57,274 bases of DNA from an uncultured Clostridia bacterium (GCA_947624105.1 CANQIX010000003.1:1-57274), one strand, 5' to 3'. Shown: positions 180 to 57,274, counted from the first letter of the stretch. Notes: generated from the sequence alone by a model not told the origin. Numbers and translations: made by a program.

Positions 180-1252
180 ACGAAAAATCGGTAAATATTT
201 GGCAAATTGGGATAATTTTGTTCATTGTTTTGCTTGCCAATAAAATTCTTCTGCTGCCATCACTCGTCTTTAAAGATGCAAATTTTGAAGGCCTAATCAC
301 AATAACAATTTTGTTTTTAATCGAAATAGGAATAATAACTTTGTTTATCTTTTTAAAAAGAAAATATAAAACACTGAGTTTTGCACAAATTTTGCGTGAA
401 AAATTTGGAAATTGGCTAAAAATAATCATATTTTTGCTGCTTGCGATATTTTTTGTCTGCAAAATATTGCTGTTGTATAACGTTACATATGCTTTTTTCA
501 ACGAACTTATCTACAAAGAGAGCAGTCCGCTTTTGTATCTTGTTTGCTTTGTTCCAATAATGACATATTTTGTGTTTTGTCCTCTTAGAACGATGGGAAG
601 AACACTGCAAATATTTTTTCCGGTTATCTTGGTGCTGACAATCTTTTGCACCTTTCTCCCATTTGTGGGACTTAATTCAACGCCGCTACTCTTTCAATCG
701 AGCGCAAGTGGAGTGTTTTTTTCAATCTTAAAGCACTCTGCTGCGTTTGGCGACAGCATAATTTTGCTTTTGTTTATCGATAAAATAGAGTATAAAGAAG
801 GAGATGGCAAAAAGATATATTTTATGGCGCTATTAGCAATCCTCTTTGTCTTTCTAATATTTTTATCATTTTATTTTTCTTACACATATACTGCATCGTT
901 TCATAGTTATGCGATTTTTGAAATACTTGGCAACATAAAAAGTTTTGGCGGAATCGGGAGAGTAGATGTTATTTCGCTTATTTTAGTGATGTTTTTGACA
1001 TATTTTCAGTTTGGAATTTTTTTCAAGGCATACACAAATTGTTTTTGTGAGGTTTTTACAAGAATAAATGCCAAATTTGCAGTGATTTTGTTTGACGTAT
1101 TGTTTGTTGTGCTAATAAATTTCGTCGTTCTAAACCTCGAAAAAGCGGTGATGTTTGCCGAAAACTTCTTTCCATACATTTCGATGCCAACGATAATTAT
1201 TGTTTTGCTTTTTGTCGCCATTTCACTGCTTAGGAGGCGAAAAAATGAATAA
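176..1252 (+). CDS. Spore germination receptor subunit B (GerAB/APC-fold membrane protein)
   Basis: 358 aa, about 10 hydrophobic segments, GRVD motif (cf. ERxD), between A and C subunits, AGGAGG RBS. Confidence 0.8.
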   Translation: MNEKSVNIWQIGIILFIVLLANKILLLPSLVFKDANFEGLITITILFLIEIGIITLFIFLKRKYKTLSFAQILREKFGNWLKIIIFLLLAIFFVCKILLLYNVTYAFFNELIYKESSPLLYLVCFVPIMTYFVFCPLRTMGRTLQIFFPVILVLTIFCTFLPFVGLNSTPLLFQSSASGVFFSILKHSAAFGDSIILLLFIDKIEYKEGDGKKIYFMALLAILFVFLIFLSFYFSYTYTASFHSYAIFEILGNIKSFGGIGRVDVISLILVMFLTYFQFGIFFKAYTNCFCEVFTRINAKFAVILFDVLFVVLINFVVLNLEKAVMFAENFFPYISMPTIIIVLLFVAISLLRRRKNE

Positions 1253-2477
1253 AGAACAGATAAAAAGGAGCATAAAAAAATTTTTTAAAGTTCCTATGCT
1301 TTGGGTGTTGCTTGTTATTGCGATTTGCTTTGGGAGTGTTTCGTTTGCAAAAAGTGCAGAGATAAACACCTATGCAATTGTTACCGCGCTTGGAATAGAC
1401 CAGGCTGACGATATGATAGAACTTTCGCTTTTAACCTTTGTGCCGATTGTGGAGCAGAACTTTAAGGACTCTTATAAGATAATCACTGCAAAAGGCAAGA
1501 CGATCAACGAGGCGCTAAATTATGCAAGCGTGCACGTGGGCAGAAGAATTGGGCTGTCGCATATAAAAACTTTGGTTGTAAATGTCGACATCTTTAAAAG
1601 CGGTGCTGCAAAAACGCTTGACTTTTTGGCGCGCAGCAAGGAACTTTCCCTTTCGACCTCTCTTATCTGCACCGATAAAAAGGCGCTTGATTTTTTAGAG
1701 GTGGTGCAACAACTTGACAATTCTGGCGCGCTAAAGATTGAAAATGTGGTCAATTTTAACAAAAAATACGTGGCAGCAGACGAAAGCACGATAGAAAGTT
1801 TTTTCAAAGGAGTAAACTCCAAAAGTAAGGCGTCAATCGTTTCGTTTATGACGCTAGACGAAAACGAGGGGCTTGACATCAGCGGACAAAGTGGCGGCGG
1901 AGACTCGTCGTCATCGCAGTCTTCTTCCAATTCGCCTGGCAAGATGATTAAAAATTCGGGCGACTGCATTTTGTGTAAGGACGGGAAGTTAGTTAAATAT
2001 GTAGCAAGCGAGGATGTCGAAAAAATAAACTACCTCAGGGGCGGATTTGAACAAGGGCAACTTGTGCTTGAAAATTGCGTAAGCGATATGTTTAAAGACA
2101 CAACTTTAACTTTTAAAATCTACAACAATTCGATTATGAAGGAGGCGAGATTTGTAAATGGCATACCACTAATTTATCTTGACGTAAAACTCAATGTTAA
2201 ACTTGTGGAGGTAAATTCCAACAAAGCAAATTACGACATCGAATTTGACGATTTGCCGGTGGAGATTATCAAGGATATTCGCTGTAAAGTCAAGGAGATG
2301 ATAACCGACGGACTTGCCATTCTGCGTGAAACGAAGTGCGATATAATTGGAGTATACGAATTTTTAAATAACAACAATTACGGCGAGTTTAAGCGCTTTT
2401 TAAATAAACTAGACGACAAAGACGACTATCTTTCAAAGGTTTTGTTTAAGGTGTCGCCAAATATTTACGCAAAATAA
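1245..2477 (+). CDS. Spore germination receptor subunit C (Ger(x)C family)
   Basis: EINTYAIVTALGID, AKGKTINEAL, LSHIK and CDIIG motifs typical of GerxC; start moved to ATG 1245 behind AGGAGG. Confidence 0.8.
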   Translation: MNKEQIKRSIKKFFKVPMLWVLLVIAICFGSVSFAKSAEINTYAIVTALGIDQADDMIELSLLTFVPIVEQNFKDSYKIITAKGKTINEALNYASVHVGRRIGLSHIKTLVVNVDIFKSGAAKTLDFLARSKELSLSTSLICTDKKALDFLEVVQQLDNSGALKIENVVNFNKKYVAADESTIESFFKGVNSKSKASIVSFMTLDENEGLDISGQSGGGDSSSSQSSSNSPGKMIKNSGDCILCKDGKLVKYVASEDVEKINYLRGGFEQGQLVLENCVSDMFKDTTLTFKIYNNSIMKEARFVNGIPLIYLDVKLNVKLVEVNSNKANYDIEFDDLPVEIIKDIRCKVKEMITDGLAILRETKCDIIGVYEFLNNNNYGEFKRFLNKLDDKDDYLSKVLFKVSPNIYAK

Positions 2478-4046: not shown

Positions 4047-6761
4047 ATGATTCAGTTGGATAAGATTACGAAGATATACAAAGTTGCAGAGTCAGAAGTA
4101 GATGCGCTGCAGCAAGTTTCTATATCCTTTAGAGAGGCGGAGTTTGTTTCTATTTTAGGGCCATCTGGCTGCGGAAAGACAACTCTTCTTAATATCATTG
4201 GCGGACTTGACCACTATACAGAGGGCGATATGTTTATCGACGGCGTTTCCACGAAAGAATATAAGGATCGCGACTGGGATACATACCGAAATCACAGAGT
4301 TGGATTTGTTTTTCAAAGTTACAATCTTATTCCTCACCAAACGATACTTGAAAACGTCGAACTTGCACTAAACATCGCCGGAGTTAAAAAGGACGAACGA
4401 GTTGCAAGAGCGAAAAAGGCGTTAGATAAGGTTGGACTTGGAGGATTATATAACAAAAAGCCAAATCAACTTTCCGGTGGACAATGTCAAAGAGTGGCAA
4501 TCGCGAGAGCACTCGTAAATGAACCAGAAATTTTGCTTGCCGATGAACCTACCGGAGCGCTTGACACAGAAACATCTGTGCAGATTATGGATATTATCAA
4601 GGAAATTTCAAAAGACACCCTTGTTATTATGGTTACGCACAATCCAGACCTTGCAGAAAAATATTCGACAAGAATTATAAGACTTCTTGACGGCAAAGTT
4701 ATCTCCGATTCAAAGGAGTTTAATCCAAAGATAGAAAAGGTTGAAAAGGTGGAACACACCACAAAATCTAGAAAATCTAAACTTGGCTTTTGGTCCGCGT
4801 TTAGGTTGTCTGCGCGCAACCTGTGGTCGAAGATTAAAAGAACCCTTATGGTTTGCGTTGCAGGTTCGATAGGCGTCATCGGTGTTGCATCAGTTTTGGC
4901 TGTTTCAACCGGTATTCAATCGTATATCAACAATATGCAAAACGATATGTTGTCCGGAAACCCAATAACAATTTCGGAAACGGTGCTTAATATGTCGGGC
5001 ATTCTAAGCAGTATGGACAGAAATTCGCAGAACGAGGCGATTAAACAATCGGTTGAAGACGGCTATGTCAATGTTGACAAGGTTATGGATTACATCATCG
5101 ATATGGCGGGCAGAGTTGACAACCTTATGGTTCAAAACGAGATTGACGAAAATTATGTAAATTACGTTCTTCAAATGCCAAAAGAATATTACGCGGCTTT
5201 CAATTTGGATTATGGCATAAACGTTTTAAATAACATCTACACGCAAAGCCCATTCACAGGGCAAGAGGAGATGCAAATTTCGTTGCAGACAATTAGGCAG
5301 GTGTATACGCAGATACTTGCAGAAACAAATTTAAGCGAATATGCAAGTTTGATAACTACACTTGACAATCCATTTAAAAAATTGCCATCAAGCAAAGAAT
5401 TTGTGCTTTCGCAGTATGACATCATTGCTCCAAACGGCAACCTTGAATATCCAAAGAACAAAAATGAGATTGCGCTTGTTGTAAATGACGATACTGCACT
5501 TTCCGACCTTACACTCGCTCAACTTGGATATTACTCTCAGGATCAGTTTATCAATTTAATTTACAAGGCGCTGGAAGATGAGAGATATAACGAAGAGATT
5601 GACAATGTAACTCGCTTTAGTTATGAAGATTTGCTTGGCAGAACATTTGTTTGGTATCCAAATGACACTGTGTATAACGCAGGAAGCGGTTTAATTCCAT
5701 TCACTTACAATCCAACAGTTACGGAAGGCTTTGAAAATGGTGTAGAGTTTACAATCAGTTGTATTTTAAGACCAAAAGCAGGGCTTTCTTACGGAAGTTT
5801 AAGCACAGGGCTTTATTACACAGAAGAATTGACCAATTATATATTAGACACCGAATATAATTCTAGAATTGTTAAACTTTTAAGAGAAAACGAAAAAGAT
5901 TATTTCACAAACATTCCATCATCAATGGGGGCTGACCAAAATAGTAGTTATGCACCTCTTGAGTTTTCATTTAACTTTATATTTGATAGCGGAGATGGAG
6001 AAGGCCCAACCGAAAGAACTATGACGGGACATATTGGAAGCCAATCTGCTTTGTCAGGGATACTTAGCAGTATGCCAGGCTTTGGTGGAGGTAGTAGTGG
6101 CGGCGGAAGTTCGATGTATAATGGGATATACCAACTTTCACTTCGCGAACTTGGCGGAGAAAAATTGCCACAATCAATCAGCATTTATCCAGTTGACTTT
6201 GAGATAAAAGACCAACTTACAAGTTATCTTCAAAAGTGGAACGAAGATGGCGACATTGTGATTTTGGATAGCAACGGACAGCAAAAGACTTTAAAGAAAG
6301 AAGATAGACAAGAGATTCAATATTCCGACAATTTGGGGCTTGTTATCAGTATGATCAACGACTTGTTGTCGATCATAACAACCGCACTTGTTGCATTTAC
6401 TTCCCTTTCACTTGTTGTGTCGACGGTTATGATTGCAATTATCACCTACGTTTCAGTTATCGAAAGAATCAAAGAGATTGGCGTTATTAGATCTTTGGGT
6501 GGCAGAAAGAAAGACGTTTCAAGATTGTTCATAGCAGAAAGCATCATTATCGGCGGAACGAGTGGAATTATCGGGCTTGTTATCACATTTATAATAACAC
6601 TTATAATCAACGGACTTGCGGATCTCACAATCGCAACGCTGACATTCCCAATTTCGGCAATAATGTTCTTAATCAGCGTGCTACTTACTTTGATTTCTGG
6701 ATTGATTCCAGCACGTGCAGCAAGCAAAAAAGATCCAGTTGTTGCACTAAGAACAGAATAA
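4047..6761 (+). CDS. ABC transporter, fused ATPase and FtsX/MacB-type permease
   Basis: Walker A GPSGCGKTT, LSGGQ signature, ILLADEPTG, C-terminal ERIKEIGVIRSLG...KKDPVVALR; start at ATG 4047 behind AGGAG. Confidence 0.92.
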   Translation: MIQLDKITKIYKVAESEVDALQQVSISFREAEFVSILGPSGCGKTTLLNIIGGLDHYTEGDMFIDGVSTKEYKDRDWDTYRNHRVGFVFQSYNLIPHQTILENVELALNIAGVKKDERVARAKKALDKVGLGGLYNKKPNQLSGGQCQRVAIARALVNEPEILLADEPTGALDTETSVQIMDIIKEISKDTLVIMVTHNPDLAEKYSTRIIRLLDGKVISDSKEFNPKIEKVEKVEHTTKSRKSKLGFWSAFRLSARNLWSKIKRTLMVCVAGSIGVIGVASVLAVSTGIQSYINNMQNDMLSGNPITISETVLNMSGILSSMDRNSQNEAIKQSVEDGYVNVDKVMDYIIDMAGRVDNLMVQNEIDENYVNYVLQMPKEYYAAFNLDYGINVLNNIYTQSPFTGQEEMQISLQTIRQVYTQILAETNLSEYASLITTLDNPFKKLPSSKEFVLSQYDIIAPNGNLEYPKNKNEIALVVNDDTALSDLTLAQLGYYSQDQFINLIYKALEDERYNEEIDNVTRFSYEDLLGRTFVWYPNDTVYNAGSGLIPFTYNPTVTEGFENGVEFTISCILRPKAGLSYGSLSTGLYYTEELTNYILDTEYNSRIVKLLRENEKDYFTNIPSSMGADQNSSYAPLEFSFNFIFDSGDGEGPTERTMTGHIGSQSALSGILSSMPGFGGGSSGGGSSMYNGIYQLSLRELGGEKLPQSISIYPVDFEIKDQLTSYLQKWNEDGDIVILDSNGQQKTLKKEDRQEIQYSDNLGLVISMINDLLSIITTALVAFTSLSLVVSTVMIAIITYVSVIERIKEIGVIRSLGGRKKDVSRLFIAESIIIGGTSGIIGLVITFIITLIINGLADLTIATLTFPISAIMFLISVLLTLISGLIPARAASKKDPVVALRTE

Positions 6762-9436: not shown

Positions 9437-9595
9437 AAAATTATGAAATTCATACCAAAGGTGTAAATTAAACGACCTAGTTAAAAATTAAAAGCCACAT
9501 ACTATTGTGGTTTTATTTTTATTGGACAGCCCTTGAAACATAAAAAATTCCAATAAGTTGTGAGGGGGAAACGGACTTATCTGGAAACTAATAGA

Positions 9596-9851
9596 GCAGT
9601 TGCTTGATAGAATCAAGCCGAGCCCACGGCAATAAAAAAAGACCTAAAAAGGTCTAGTTTGGTGGACTGCCGGGGGAACGTTATGAAACTTGCTTAGGAG
9701 CAAGTTGAATGGCCGACCACGAAAACTTACTTGACCGGTCCGACCCGGACTTGTCCGGGGTTAACTGCAGGGCAGTTGCTTGATAAAATCAAGCCGAGCC
9801 CACGGCAATAAAAAAAGACCTAAAAGGTCTAGTTTGGTGGACTGCCGGGGG
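9596..9851. repeat. Direct repeat (9596-9676 and 9772-9851) of the tRNA-Lys 3' end, terminator and downstream palindromes
   Basis: About 80-bp near-identical copies (one substitution, one 1-bp indel), period 176 bp; each includes 17 nt of the tRNA 3' end. Confidence 0.93.
9810..9830 (-). terminator. Terminator of tRNA-Lys
   Basis: On the minus strand AGACC-TTTTA-GGTCT followed by a T tract, directly after CCA. Confidence 0.6.
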
Positions 9852-9910
9852 CTCGAACCCCGGACCCTTCGATTAAGAGTCGAATGCTCTACCAACTGAG
9901 CTAGCAGTCC
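9835..9910 (-). tRNA. tRNA-Lys(CTT)
   Basis: Reverse complement GGACTGCTAGCTCAGTTGGTAGAGCATTCGACTCTTAATCGAAGGGTCCGGGGTTCGAGCCCCCGGCAGTCCACCA; 76-nt cloverleaf, anticodon CTT, encoded CCA. Confidence 0.97.
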
Positions 9911-9946: not shown

Positions 9947-9975
9947 ATTATACAACACATTTTTTTAATTGTCAA
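9947..9975 (-). promoter_or_regulatory. Sigma-A promoter of tRNA-Lys
   Basis: Perfect TTGACA-17 bp-TATAAT on the minus strand. Confidence 0.85.
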
Positions 9976-56081: not shown

Positions 56082-56741
56082 ATGATAAGAATAACAAAGG
56101 ACTGGGCAAACCGTTTAAGAGGGGAATTTGACAAGGAATATTTCAAAAATTTGCAAAAGTTTTTGGAAGATGAATACTCGCGCTATGATATTTATCCTAA
56201 AATGGAAAACATCTTCAATGCGTTAAATTCTTGCAAGTTTGATGATGTAAAAGTGGTGATAATTGGGCAAGACCCTTATCACGAACCTCATCAGGCGCAC
56301 GGACTTTCGTTTTCGGTGGAAGAAGGAGTTGATTTTCCTCCATCGCTTGTAAACATCTTTAAGGAGATTGAAGACGACTTAAAGATAAAAGTTCAACCAT
56401 CTGGAAATTTATCGCGTTGGGCAAGACAAGGAGTTATGCTTTTAAACACCACACTTACCGTTAGACGCGGACAGGCAAATTCGCACCGCGGGCACGGGTG
56501 GGAAACTTTTACAAACGAAGTTATCAGGCAACTGTCTGTGAGAAAAGATCCGCTCGTCTTTTTGCTTTGGGGAAGCAATGCGCAAAGTTTTGAACCTATT
56601 ATCGAAAAACAGCACTTAGTTTTAAAAGCCCCTCATCCAAGCCCACTTTCTGCATACAGAGGGTTCTTTGGTTGCAAACATTTTTCAAAGGCTAATGAGT
56701 TTTTAATCAAAAACGGAAAGACACCAATCGATTGGAGTTAA
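56082..56741 (+). CDS. ung: Uracil-DNA glycosylase
   Basis: GQDPYH, GLSFSV, PPSLVNI, LLNTTLTV, HPSPLS. Confidence 0.97.
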   Translation: MIRITKDWANRLRGEFDKEYFKNLQKFLEDEYSRYDIYPKMENIFNALNSCKFDDVKVVIIGQDPYHEPHQAHGLSFSVEEGVDFPPSLVNIFKEIEDDLKIKVQPSGNLSRWARQGVMLLNTTLTVRRGQANSHRGHGWETFTNEVIRQLSVRKDPLVFLLWGSNAQSFEPIIEKQHLVLKAPHPSPLSAYRGFFGCKHFSKANEFLIKNGKTPIDWS

Positions 56742-56773
56742 TTACGCAATTTTGAAAAATTTTCATAAATTGC

Positions 56774-56802
56774 TTGATTTTTAGTCTGGTATTTGGTATA
56801 TT
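56774..56802 (+). promoter_or_regulatory. Promoter of tRNA operon
   Basis: TTGATT-17 bp-(TGg)TATATT. Confidence 0.6.
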
Positions 56803-56858
56803 AATAGAGCAAGTTGTCAAAAAGTTCTTTATTTGAATATAACTTATTGACATTGTGT

Positions 56859-56933
56859 GCGGGAGTGGCTCAGTGGTAGAGCGTTGCCTTGCCAAGGCAA
56901 ATGTCGCGAGTTCGAATCTCGTCTTCCGCTCCA
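56859..56933 (+). tRNA. tRNA-Gly(GCC)
   Basis: GCGGGAG...TTGCC-TT-GCC-AA-GGCAA...GTTCGAATC...CTTCCGCTCCA. Confidence 0.96.
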
Positions 56934-56987
56934 ATCTATGAAGTGGCGGGTTTGTATAATTTCTCAAATTCGCCATTTTTGTTAGAT

Positions 56988-57062
56988 GGTACCATGGCCA
57001 AGTGGTAAGGCAAAGGTCTGCAAAACCTTTATTCCCCAGTTCGAATCTGGGTGGTACCTCCA
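56988..57062 (+). tRNA. tRNA-Cys(GCA)
   Basis: GGTACCA...AAGGT-CT-GCA-AA-ACCTT...TTCGAAT...TGGTACCTCCA. Confidence 0.96.
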
Positions 57063-57100
57063 AAAAAATGCCCCAAAGTTTCTTTGGGGCATTTAATTAG

Positions 57101-57186
57101 GCCGGTGTGGCGGAATGGCAGACGCATGGGACTTAAAATCCCAAGTTCGAAAGGACGTGTGGGTTCGACCCCCACCACCGGCACCA
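57101..57186 (+). tRNA. tRNA-Leu(TAA)
   Basis: GCCGGTG...TGGGA-CT-TAA-AA-TCCCA, long variable arm, GGTTCGACC, CACCGGCACCA. Confidence 0.96.
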
Positions 57187-57209
57187 ACAAAAAAATTGCA
57201 AACGATTTT

Positions 57210-57274
57210 TGGTGGGGGTTAAAAAGCTTCGCTTTTTTAGCAAAACTTTGTTTTGCACGAACCCACACTGTGTG
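57210..57274. repeat. Inverted, hairpin-interrupted copy of the tRNA-Leu T-arm (cut by window end)
   Basis: tggtgggggt (57210-19) and cgaacccacac (57258-68) are the reverse complement of the tRNA's GTGTGGGTTCG|ACCCCCACCA, separated by two hairpins. Confidence 0.8.

Follow-up and report, generated by a model that had tools for sequence, protein, structure and literature searches.

Inverted T-arm copies behind tRNA-Leu(TAA) of an uncultured Clostridia bacterium probably open a tRNA-fitted module that is RtT-like in design

We analysed a stretch of 57,274 nucleotides (hereafter, the window) that makes up an entire contig (C3) of an uncultured Clostridia bacterium, the assembly of which comprises 958,864 bases in 50 contigs. 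As the window is the whole contig, there are no bases past position 57274. At its 3' end, ARAGORN detected genes for tRNA-Gly(GCC), tRNA-Cys(GCA), and tRNA-Leu(TAA). The last of these, located at 57101-57186 on the plus strand (Rfam tRNA model, 60.9 bits), is the source of the copied T-arm described below. The 5' half of this T-arm, GTGTGGGTTCG, lies at 57157-57167 (+) and the 3' half, ACCCCCACCA, at 57168-57177 (+); both were located in the sequence by an exact-match script. A second, different tRNA-Leu(TAA) gene, running off a contig end, was found on contig C46 of this genome (G000; 4086-4169, minus strand). It is followed by an ordinary terminator, carries no module, and could be either a true second gene or a contribution of another strain in the bin.

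The 88-base trailer behind tRNA-Leu(TAA) holds an inverted copy of the T-arm of that tRNA. The module begins 5 nt past the CCA, as it also does at tRNA-Lys(CTT), with a weak A/T-rich hairpin, AAAAATTG-CAAA-CGATTTTT (57191-57210, +; sequence and minimum-energy fold). This hairpin occupies the spot held by the tRNA's terminator in other modules; it received no score in a terminator scan, and the scan found no canonical terminator between tRNA-Leu and its module. It is followed by the inverted T-arm 3' half, TGGTGGGGGT (57210-57219, +), which is the reverse complement of 57168-57177. Two hairpins then lie within the inverted T-loop, AAAAAGC-TTC-GCTTTTT (57221-57237, +) and GCAAAAC-TTT-GTTTTGC (57240-57256, +), both read from the sequence and its fold and both present in a homologue from a second genome, G155. 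The inverted 5' half, CGAACCCACAC (57258-57268, +), is the reverse complement of 57157-57167. The last bases of the contig are T and GTGTG (57269-57274, +). The GTGTG (57270-57274, +) equals the first five bases of the direct T-arm 5' strand, folding back on the inverted copy, and is cut by the contig end, as comparison with the G155 homologue indicates.

All of these parts (the hairpin, the split inverted T-arm, its two hairpins, and the start of a fold-back) had been listed in a preliminary description of the window, and all were read directly in the sequence; the observation at tRNA-Leu(TAA) is confirmed. The 11 + 10 nt identity to the T-arm of this tRNA claimed there proved exact by script, the two inverted blocks together covering the whole T-arm, split inside the T-loop. 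When the 88-base trailer was shuffled 20,000 times, inverted matches of at least 10 nt to the last 34 tRNA bases arose in four shuffles, and an 11-nt match together with a 10-nt match in none. Downstream inverted copies (at least 9 nt of the tRNA's last 34 bases, within 450 nt) were present at three of the 34 tRNA genes of the assembly, namely Lys-CTT, Leu-TAA, and Trp, and upstream inverted copies of at least 9 nt of these bases at none of the 34. We consider that 57191-57274 probably makes up the first half of a module that is non-coding, measures about 165 nt in full, is fitted to the preceding tRNA gene, and is cut by the contig end.

The continuation past 57274, or the predicted 3' end, was found on no other contig of the assembly. 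We searched the 88-base trailer against all 154 genus genomes and obtained one real homologue, on contig C58 of G155, which matched at two places and was 90% identical to the window over trailer bases 20-88 (69 bases); the remaining matches in these genomes were short A/T-rich pieces only. The first G155 copy (minus strand) sits behind a displaced 3' part of tRNA-Leu(TAA). It opens with the trailer, GGTGGGAGT, two hairpins, and CGAACCCACA and, after this inverted 5' half, runs on through AC and GTGTGG into a stretch of about 55 nt holding two hairpins, behind which come CTCCCACCACCAGCACCA and a terminator. The distance from CCA to CCA is 164 nt, and the direct copy of the tRNA end is 18 nt long, beginning in the T-loop. 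The prediction in the preliminary description of GTGTGGG, more hairpins, and a regenerated ...CACCA end 150-200 bp on was thus borne out in this homologue, with GTGTGG and 164 nt between the CCAs. The full module of the window would be expected to continue likewise with GTGTGGG and two hairpins and to end in ...CCCCACCACCGGCACCA about 165 nt after base 57186. The predicted fold of the G155 copy combines a closing stem (GGTGGGAG/CTCCCACC) with four hairpins and the fold-back, at -62.3 kcal/mol; the window's own copy contains only the 5' strand of the closing stem. The final base of the T-loop differs, being C in the window but T in G155, and the inverted copy differs with it (G and A, respectively); judged by this pair of sequences, the inverted copy tracks its own tRNA.

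Between the two G155 copies lies a gene for a short-chain dehydrogenase of 238 residues (bases 1644-2360 of locus L126 on G155:C58, minus strand; Pfam adh_short, E 5.4e-41). The second copy is truncated, starting with part of the acceptor strand and lacking the final tRNA end. To judge from this cargo gene, the duplicated tRNA end seems to act as a second landing site. The same contig also carries an island upstream, in the anticodon loop of the same tRNA-Leu(TAA).

Contigs of four public gut-metagenome runs were placed on 56600-57274. A 324-nt contig of run X2 covers 57210-57274 with five differences and one gap and then, according to the placement, 'goes back 105', resuming at 57170 with a copy at least 31 nt long. 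This copy consists of the T-stem 3' strand, the acceptor strand, the CCA, and the trailer. The other contigs of the four runs mainly covered tRNA genes, so their gaps are uninformative.

A complete sister module was found in the window behind tRNA-Lys(CTT) (9835-9910, minus strand; ARAGORN). It occupies 9660-9834 (-), was delimited by sequence and script, and scored 79.3 bits against the covariance model of its family. Reading along the minus strand, it comprises a terminator (9816-9830), the inverted T-arm 3' half with one mismatch (9795-9806), two inverted-T-loop hairpins (9778-9794 and 9763-9777), the inverted T-arm 5' half (9753-9762), AA, the direct T-arm 5' strand (9743-9750), a 66-nt core of two hairpins (9677-9742), and, as a direct copy, the 17 bases that end the tRNA, beginning at the last T-loop base (9660-9676). 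A second, decayed unit follows at 9565-9659 (-); it repeats a terminator copy (9640-9655), the inverted 3' half, and hairpin 1, the remainder having degenerated. At 9947-9975 (-), immediately ahead of tRNA-Lys(CTT), there is a 12/12 match to the sigma-70 consensus (TTGACA, 17 nt, TATAAT). The shared layout upholds the earlier claim that the element at tRNA-Leu(TAA) is a second instance with the part order of that at tRNA-Lys, and the interpretation as a recurring element is supported.

The same part order, with very different hairpin sequences, was seen at tRNA-Lys loci throughout the genus. We built a covariance model of this Lys family from six similar units with a hand-checked structure and detected 32 copies in the collected tRNA loci. 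By this model, 58 of the 150 genus genomes contain the family, as do 43 of the 101 high-quality ones. Its hosts are tRNA-Lys(CTT), tRNA-Lys(TTT), and tRNA-Met(CAT), the T-arm 5' halves of which are similar. Some tRNA-Lys(CTT) sites are empty (G122 and G099); others carry tandem arrays, for example of three units in G076. In G007, the right-hand arms of the second unit (b) fit the tRNA-Lys of another species, which suggests import. At the Lys-family loci, the inverted and the second direct T-arm copy break at one shared point of the T-loop. By our reading of predicted folds, the closing stem forms in 17 of 18 units (16 genomes) and, as in G155, leaves the acceptor strand and CCA free. In 17 of the 18 Lys units, the inverted-T-loop insert folds as exactly two hairpins, the stems of which differ in sequence. 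Candidates for a full-length, gene-carrying Lys module in G057 and G130 were rejected, the right half being missing and ordinary genes coming next. At five loci, four at tRNA-Lys(CTT) (L035, L036, L043, and L054) and one at tRNA-Lys(TTT) (L049), the module stands behind a displaced tRNA 3' part that begins in the anticodon loop, which implies that a larger island inserted into that tRNA, upstream of the module.

Conservation of the predicted structure was assessed on the 32 model-aligned copies. Pairing was retained in 93.8% of cells, compared to 76.3% in shuffles (none of 500 reached 93.8%) and 26-44% in slid controls, although the alignment was fitted to the model and the result therefore leans towards structure. 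Changes on both sides were present in 30 of 43 pairs, and about 88-90% of cells in the closing-stem helices were paired. Because a plain MAFFT alignment misplaced the variable hairpins, RNAalifold applied to it recovered no more than the closing stem and one inner helix, and the covariance model was used instead. Summed over 18 Lys units, the fold energy was -1130 kcal/mol for the antisense strand versus -1051 kcal/mol for the sense strand; mismatches that are G-U only on the antisense strand numbered 68, compared to 46 for the sense strand. No conserved promoter was found in front of the module.

Several local families share the part order and have unrelated cores. They were found behind tRNA-Trp, tRNA-Leu(CAA), tRNA-Leu(TAA) in G017, tRNA-Gln(TTG) in G106, and, in three relatives, the tRNA-Gly(GCC) of the same cluster. 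The preliminary description had remarked that the internal tRNA genes of the cluster lack the element. This is correct for the window and does not hold as a rule, both in view of these three relatives and since the RtT units of Escherichia coli occur between tRNA genes. In the module behind tRNA-Trp (G000 contig C41, about 1120-1282, minus strand), the inverted T-arm copy is 14 nt long and unbroken; it is followed by a fold-back, a conserved core, and a decayed copy of the tRNA end. Its core is common to the tRNA-Leu(CAA) modules of G005 (two tandem units) and G008.

Other repeats and islands were observed near tRNA genes. Behind tRNA-Met(CAT) on G000 contig C11 (23302-23500), a stretch of about 90 nt is directly repeated; it begins in the T-loop and takes in the terminator and a hairpin, its copies are 14 nt apart, and there is no inverted T-arm copy. 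A hairpin-rich tandem repeat with a period of about 186 nt directly follows tRNA-Arg(ACG) on contig C22 (6511-6900) and also occurs on C41 (767-1117). It contains no copy of a tRNA end, and pieces related to it stand behind tRNA genes of G008 and G061. At L029 (G012:C22) and L024 (G023:C1), the anticodon loop of tRNA-Leu(CAA) is occupied by ordinary islands. One of the two is 5 kb long, with a PEP-utilising-type enzyme, a radical-SAM-like gene (by eye), and no integrase; the other is 1.6 kb long and has a truncated serine-recombinase N-terminus reading into the tRNA. Two wider scans yielded matches that we rejected. Among metagenome contigs, the split inverted T-arm was matched once, by a GC-rich contig that is unrelated and whose matching stretch overlaps a tRNA-Leu gene of the other strand. 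The 11 fold-back palindromes detected in genome contigs had no tRNA nearby and were therefore attributed to chance.

The layout of the module is already known in kind, a point missed by the preliminary description: it is that of the E. coli RtT repeats (Rfam RF00391). These repeats have been known since the 1980s, and we know of no explanation for them. In E. coli K-12, the RtT unit behind tyrT/tyrV consists of GGGGAAGGAT (inverted T-arm 3'), 7 nt, TTCGACC (inverted 5'), AA, GGTTCGA (direct 5'), a GC-rich hairpin core, and ATCCTTCCCCCACCACCA (direct 3' end). At tyrT-tyrV, one unit lies between the genes and three follow tyrV. The Rfam consensus structure is closed by a stem of the inverted and direct copies, with CCACCACCA left single-stranded. 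The RtT model produced 18 matches in K-12, 13 of them above the cut-off, behind Tyr, Lys, Pro, Ser, and Arg tRNA genes and a Lys-Val cluster. Those behind the Lys, Ser, Arg, and Pro genes lie at 780.5-781.8, 1097.0-1097.5, 2521.3, 2817.6-2818.5, and 3708.4 kb of NC_000913. The tyrT/tyrV, lysQ/lysV, and proK units all contain an inverted T-arm piece, a fold-back, a GC-rich core, and a direct copy of the last 18-19 tRNA bases. In the lysQ/lysV and proK units, the arms match the local tRNA and the repeat takes in the terminator, as at the window's tRNA-Lys. We found no paper stating that RtT units are tailored to each tRNA, nor any that describes this layout outside RtT or spells out the RtT design.

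Both RtT and the present modules thus stand directly behind tRNA genes and are fitted to several different tRNAs. In both, a split inverted T-arm and a fold-back are combined with a hairpin core, and the final 17-19 bases of the tRNA, CCA included, recur as a direct copy. This copy measures 18 nt in the G155 homologue and 17 nt at tRNA-Lys; at the window's tRNA-Leu, the contig ends first. In both, the inverted and direct copies form the closing stem, and tandem arrays end in a partial unit. The differences lie in the inverted T-loop insert (7 nt in the tyrT units versus two hairpins here), in composition (GC-rich RtT versus A/T-rich modules, with no detectable similarity of sequence or model), and in the host (a gamma-proteobacterium versus a Clostridia bacterium of about 1 Mb). 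Furthermore, an RNA product has been reported in papers on RtT, whereas the present modules are described from DNA sequence.

Membership of the RtT family was assessed at the gathering score of 45 bits, with four matches of 133-137.5 bits at tyrT/tyrV as a positive control. The model gave no match at E values up to 1 in 56700-57274, five tRNA-Lys loci, L021, L022, or the whole genome, and among 14 control genomes it matched one, E. coli. At permissive thresholds, Rfam returned for the Leu, Lys, and relatives' loci the tRNA itself and scattered sub-threshold matches to unrelated families only. The Lys-family covariance model matched neither E. coli RtT nor the other local module types. As the Rfam RtT model has no match here, we class the modules as a new variant that resembles RtT in design and not in sequence. 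This likeness could reflect convergence.

Published work describes RtT as a stable RNA released from the tRNA transcript (PMC4986893, PMC2965389). The first of these papers states that RtT RNAs are freed from tRNA operon transcripts, and that RtT-family RNAs beside tRNA genes give Northern signals in Actinobacillus pleuropneumoniae, a species of the Pasteurellaceae (PMC4986893). A preprint reports raised coverage of the tyrT-rttR region in exonuclease-treated DNA under stress and calls the rttR 'mode of action still unknown' (bioRxiv 10.1101/2024.07.17.603846).

By analogy with these reports, we regard as the most likely reading, with moderate confidence, that the sequences constitute an RtT-like module that may be transcribed with its tRNA and cut out by 3'-end processing. 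A full module would begin with a spacer or terminator and an inverted T-arm copy with two small hairpins set into a single T-loop position. The strand would then turn within 1-2 nt into the direct T-arm 5' strand and two more hairpins, and the module would close with the direct T-stem 3' strand, the acceptor 3' strand, CCA, and a terminator. In a single strand, the inverted and direct copies would pair, closing a junction of many hairpins and leaving a tRNA-type ...CCA tail free. If the RtT papers are a guide, the module would be transcribed with its tRNA or just after it and would be released by the enzymes that trim tRNA 3' ends, because both module borders are tRNA-type 3' ends; the closing stem could then stabilise the released module. 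The second tRNA 3' end would let units multiply or vanish by unequal crossing-over, which could explain the arrays, and might offer an extra landing site for tRNA-targeting islands. Between tRNA-Lys and its module there is a terminator-like hairpin with a T-run, which would therefore limit read-through and argues against the RNA reading.

The modules might instead be miniature integrative DNA elements, gene-less attachment sites moved in trans by a tRNA-targeting recombinase, which we consider possible if rather unlikely. Integration into tRNA genes classically leaves a regenerated tRNA 3' end, and the distribution is patchy: the window's element was absent from all 11 tRNA-Leu(TAA) loci of relatives (found by ARAGORN) that were followed downstream, a 12th such locus (G017) holds another module type, and among the 153 other genus genomes only G155 has the element. 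The empty and tandem tRNA-Lys(CTT) loci, the G007 unit with arms of another species, the dehydrogenase gene flanked by the two G155 copies, and the ordinary islands in the anticodon loops of the same tRNAs also favour this account. So do the drift of the stems with pairing kept, as expected of a folded single strand, and the breakage of the inverted and second direct copies at one T-loop position. In a bolder form, the folded single strand would rebuild a duplex mimic of the T-arm with the hairpins bulged out, and this would be the recombination substrate. However, no gene or open reading frame lies inside the modules and none is consistently adjacent. The genome has two tyrosine-recombinase matches (a 352-aa frame on C10 and a partial one at the contig start of C16), neither beside these tRNAs, and no serine recombinases or Y1 transposases (PF01797) were detected in it. 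The double-stranded junction lacks the inverted core sites of a usual attP. A scan of viral contigs for the Lys-family core motif gave 18 matches, five of which fit the family profile (E up to 10, motif region only), and the best four of these five were unrelated GC-rich DNA with no tRNA gene. For E. coli RtT, the papers report an RNA product and describe no mobility. Nevertheless, the presence and absence among species, the chimeric G007 unit, and the bracketed G155 gene fit a mobile DNA element as well or better.

Two further readings concern the origin of the sequence itself. Fold-back priming or template switching followed by tandem duplication could have rearranged the DNA locally at a hairpin-forming gene with high transcription, leaving a by-product without function. 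The 5' strands of the inverted and direct copies do meet in a near-perfect palindrome with a centre of 1-2 nt, and arrays stop at arbitrary points, with partial last units. Yet neutral scars would be expected neither to have cores conserved across species and tRNAs (Lys-CTT/Lys-TTT/Met; Trp/Leu-CAA) nor to keep hairpin pairing through many compensatory changes, which makes this origin improbable. Two features would suit an assembly artefact or the 3' portion of an independent tRNA gene or pseudogene on the minus strand: the contig end falls exactly on the centre of a small palindrome, and the T-arm halves read properly on the minus strand. A minus-strand tRNA, which the preliminary description had itself named as an alternative, was called neither by ARAGORN nor by Rfam, here or at the G155 locus. 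Moreover, no acceptor strand follows the minus-strand CCCAC, and the G155 homologue continues into hairpins and a direct 3' end with no tRNA body. The layout is the same in an independent assembly (G155) and in a contig of another run, which argues against an artefact. We regard this pair of explanations as very improbable and largely refuted. None of the readings accounts for the origin of tailored new copies.

Comparison with other known systems places the RtT-like modules close to several classes of mobile DNA. In tRNA-targeting integrative elements, with or without an integrase, as in the modules, the insert lies between direct repeats of the tRNA 3' end and the tRNA stays intact, the repeat starts from the T-loop, and relatives have empty sites or tandem copies. 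Here, however, the insert is about 165 nt long and gene-less, with an extra inverted copy of the target, conserved hairpins, and no linked recombinase. The forked hairpin of CTX phage attP(+) and integron attC sites are recombination sites made of folded single strands. In these, paired inverted half-copies form a duplex mimic with bulges, to which the fold predicted here is alike; structure is conserved while sequence drifts, and two copies can bracket cargo, as in G155. The target of the present modules is the T-arm of a tRNA and not dif or attI, and no cassette array, cognate recombinase, or free single-stranded form is known for them. Protein-less derivatives of IS200/IS605-type transposons resemble the modules in being small, hairpin-bearing, and inserted beside a fixed short sequence. 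Such transposons are not known to duplicate their target or to carry a copy of it, whereas the modules here are flanked by a duplicated tRNA end, and PF01797 had no match in the genome. With no Y1 (HUH) transposase and with a duplicated tRNA end, the IS200/IS605-type derivative was rejected as a candidate.

A broader proposal, which we put forward as an unlikely speculation, is that RtT-type modules form a branch of protein-less, single-strand-folding elements that occur across phyla, insert by means of a duplex mimic of the T-arm, and carry or trap cargo, the RNA being a side product. If this were true, the E. coli RtT repeats would be the gamma-proteobacterial members of a cross-phyla class of elements.

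The RtT design has here been shown in a distant lineage, a Clostridia bacterium of about 1 Mb, where it is built from unrelated sequence and occurs in several local families, each fitted to its tRNA. This would fit a general, uncatalogued class of tRNA-linked modules. New in the present variant are the two hairpins that split the inverted T-loop, the A/T-rich composition, and the Clostridia host. For annotation, the modules explain duplicated tRNA 3' ends, contig breaks beside tRNA genes, and apparent pseudo-tRNA fragments. The link to RtT also gives the class a tractable model organism, E. coli K-12.
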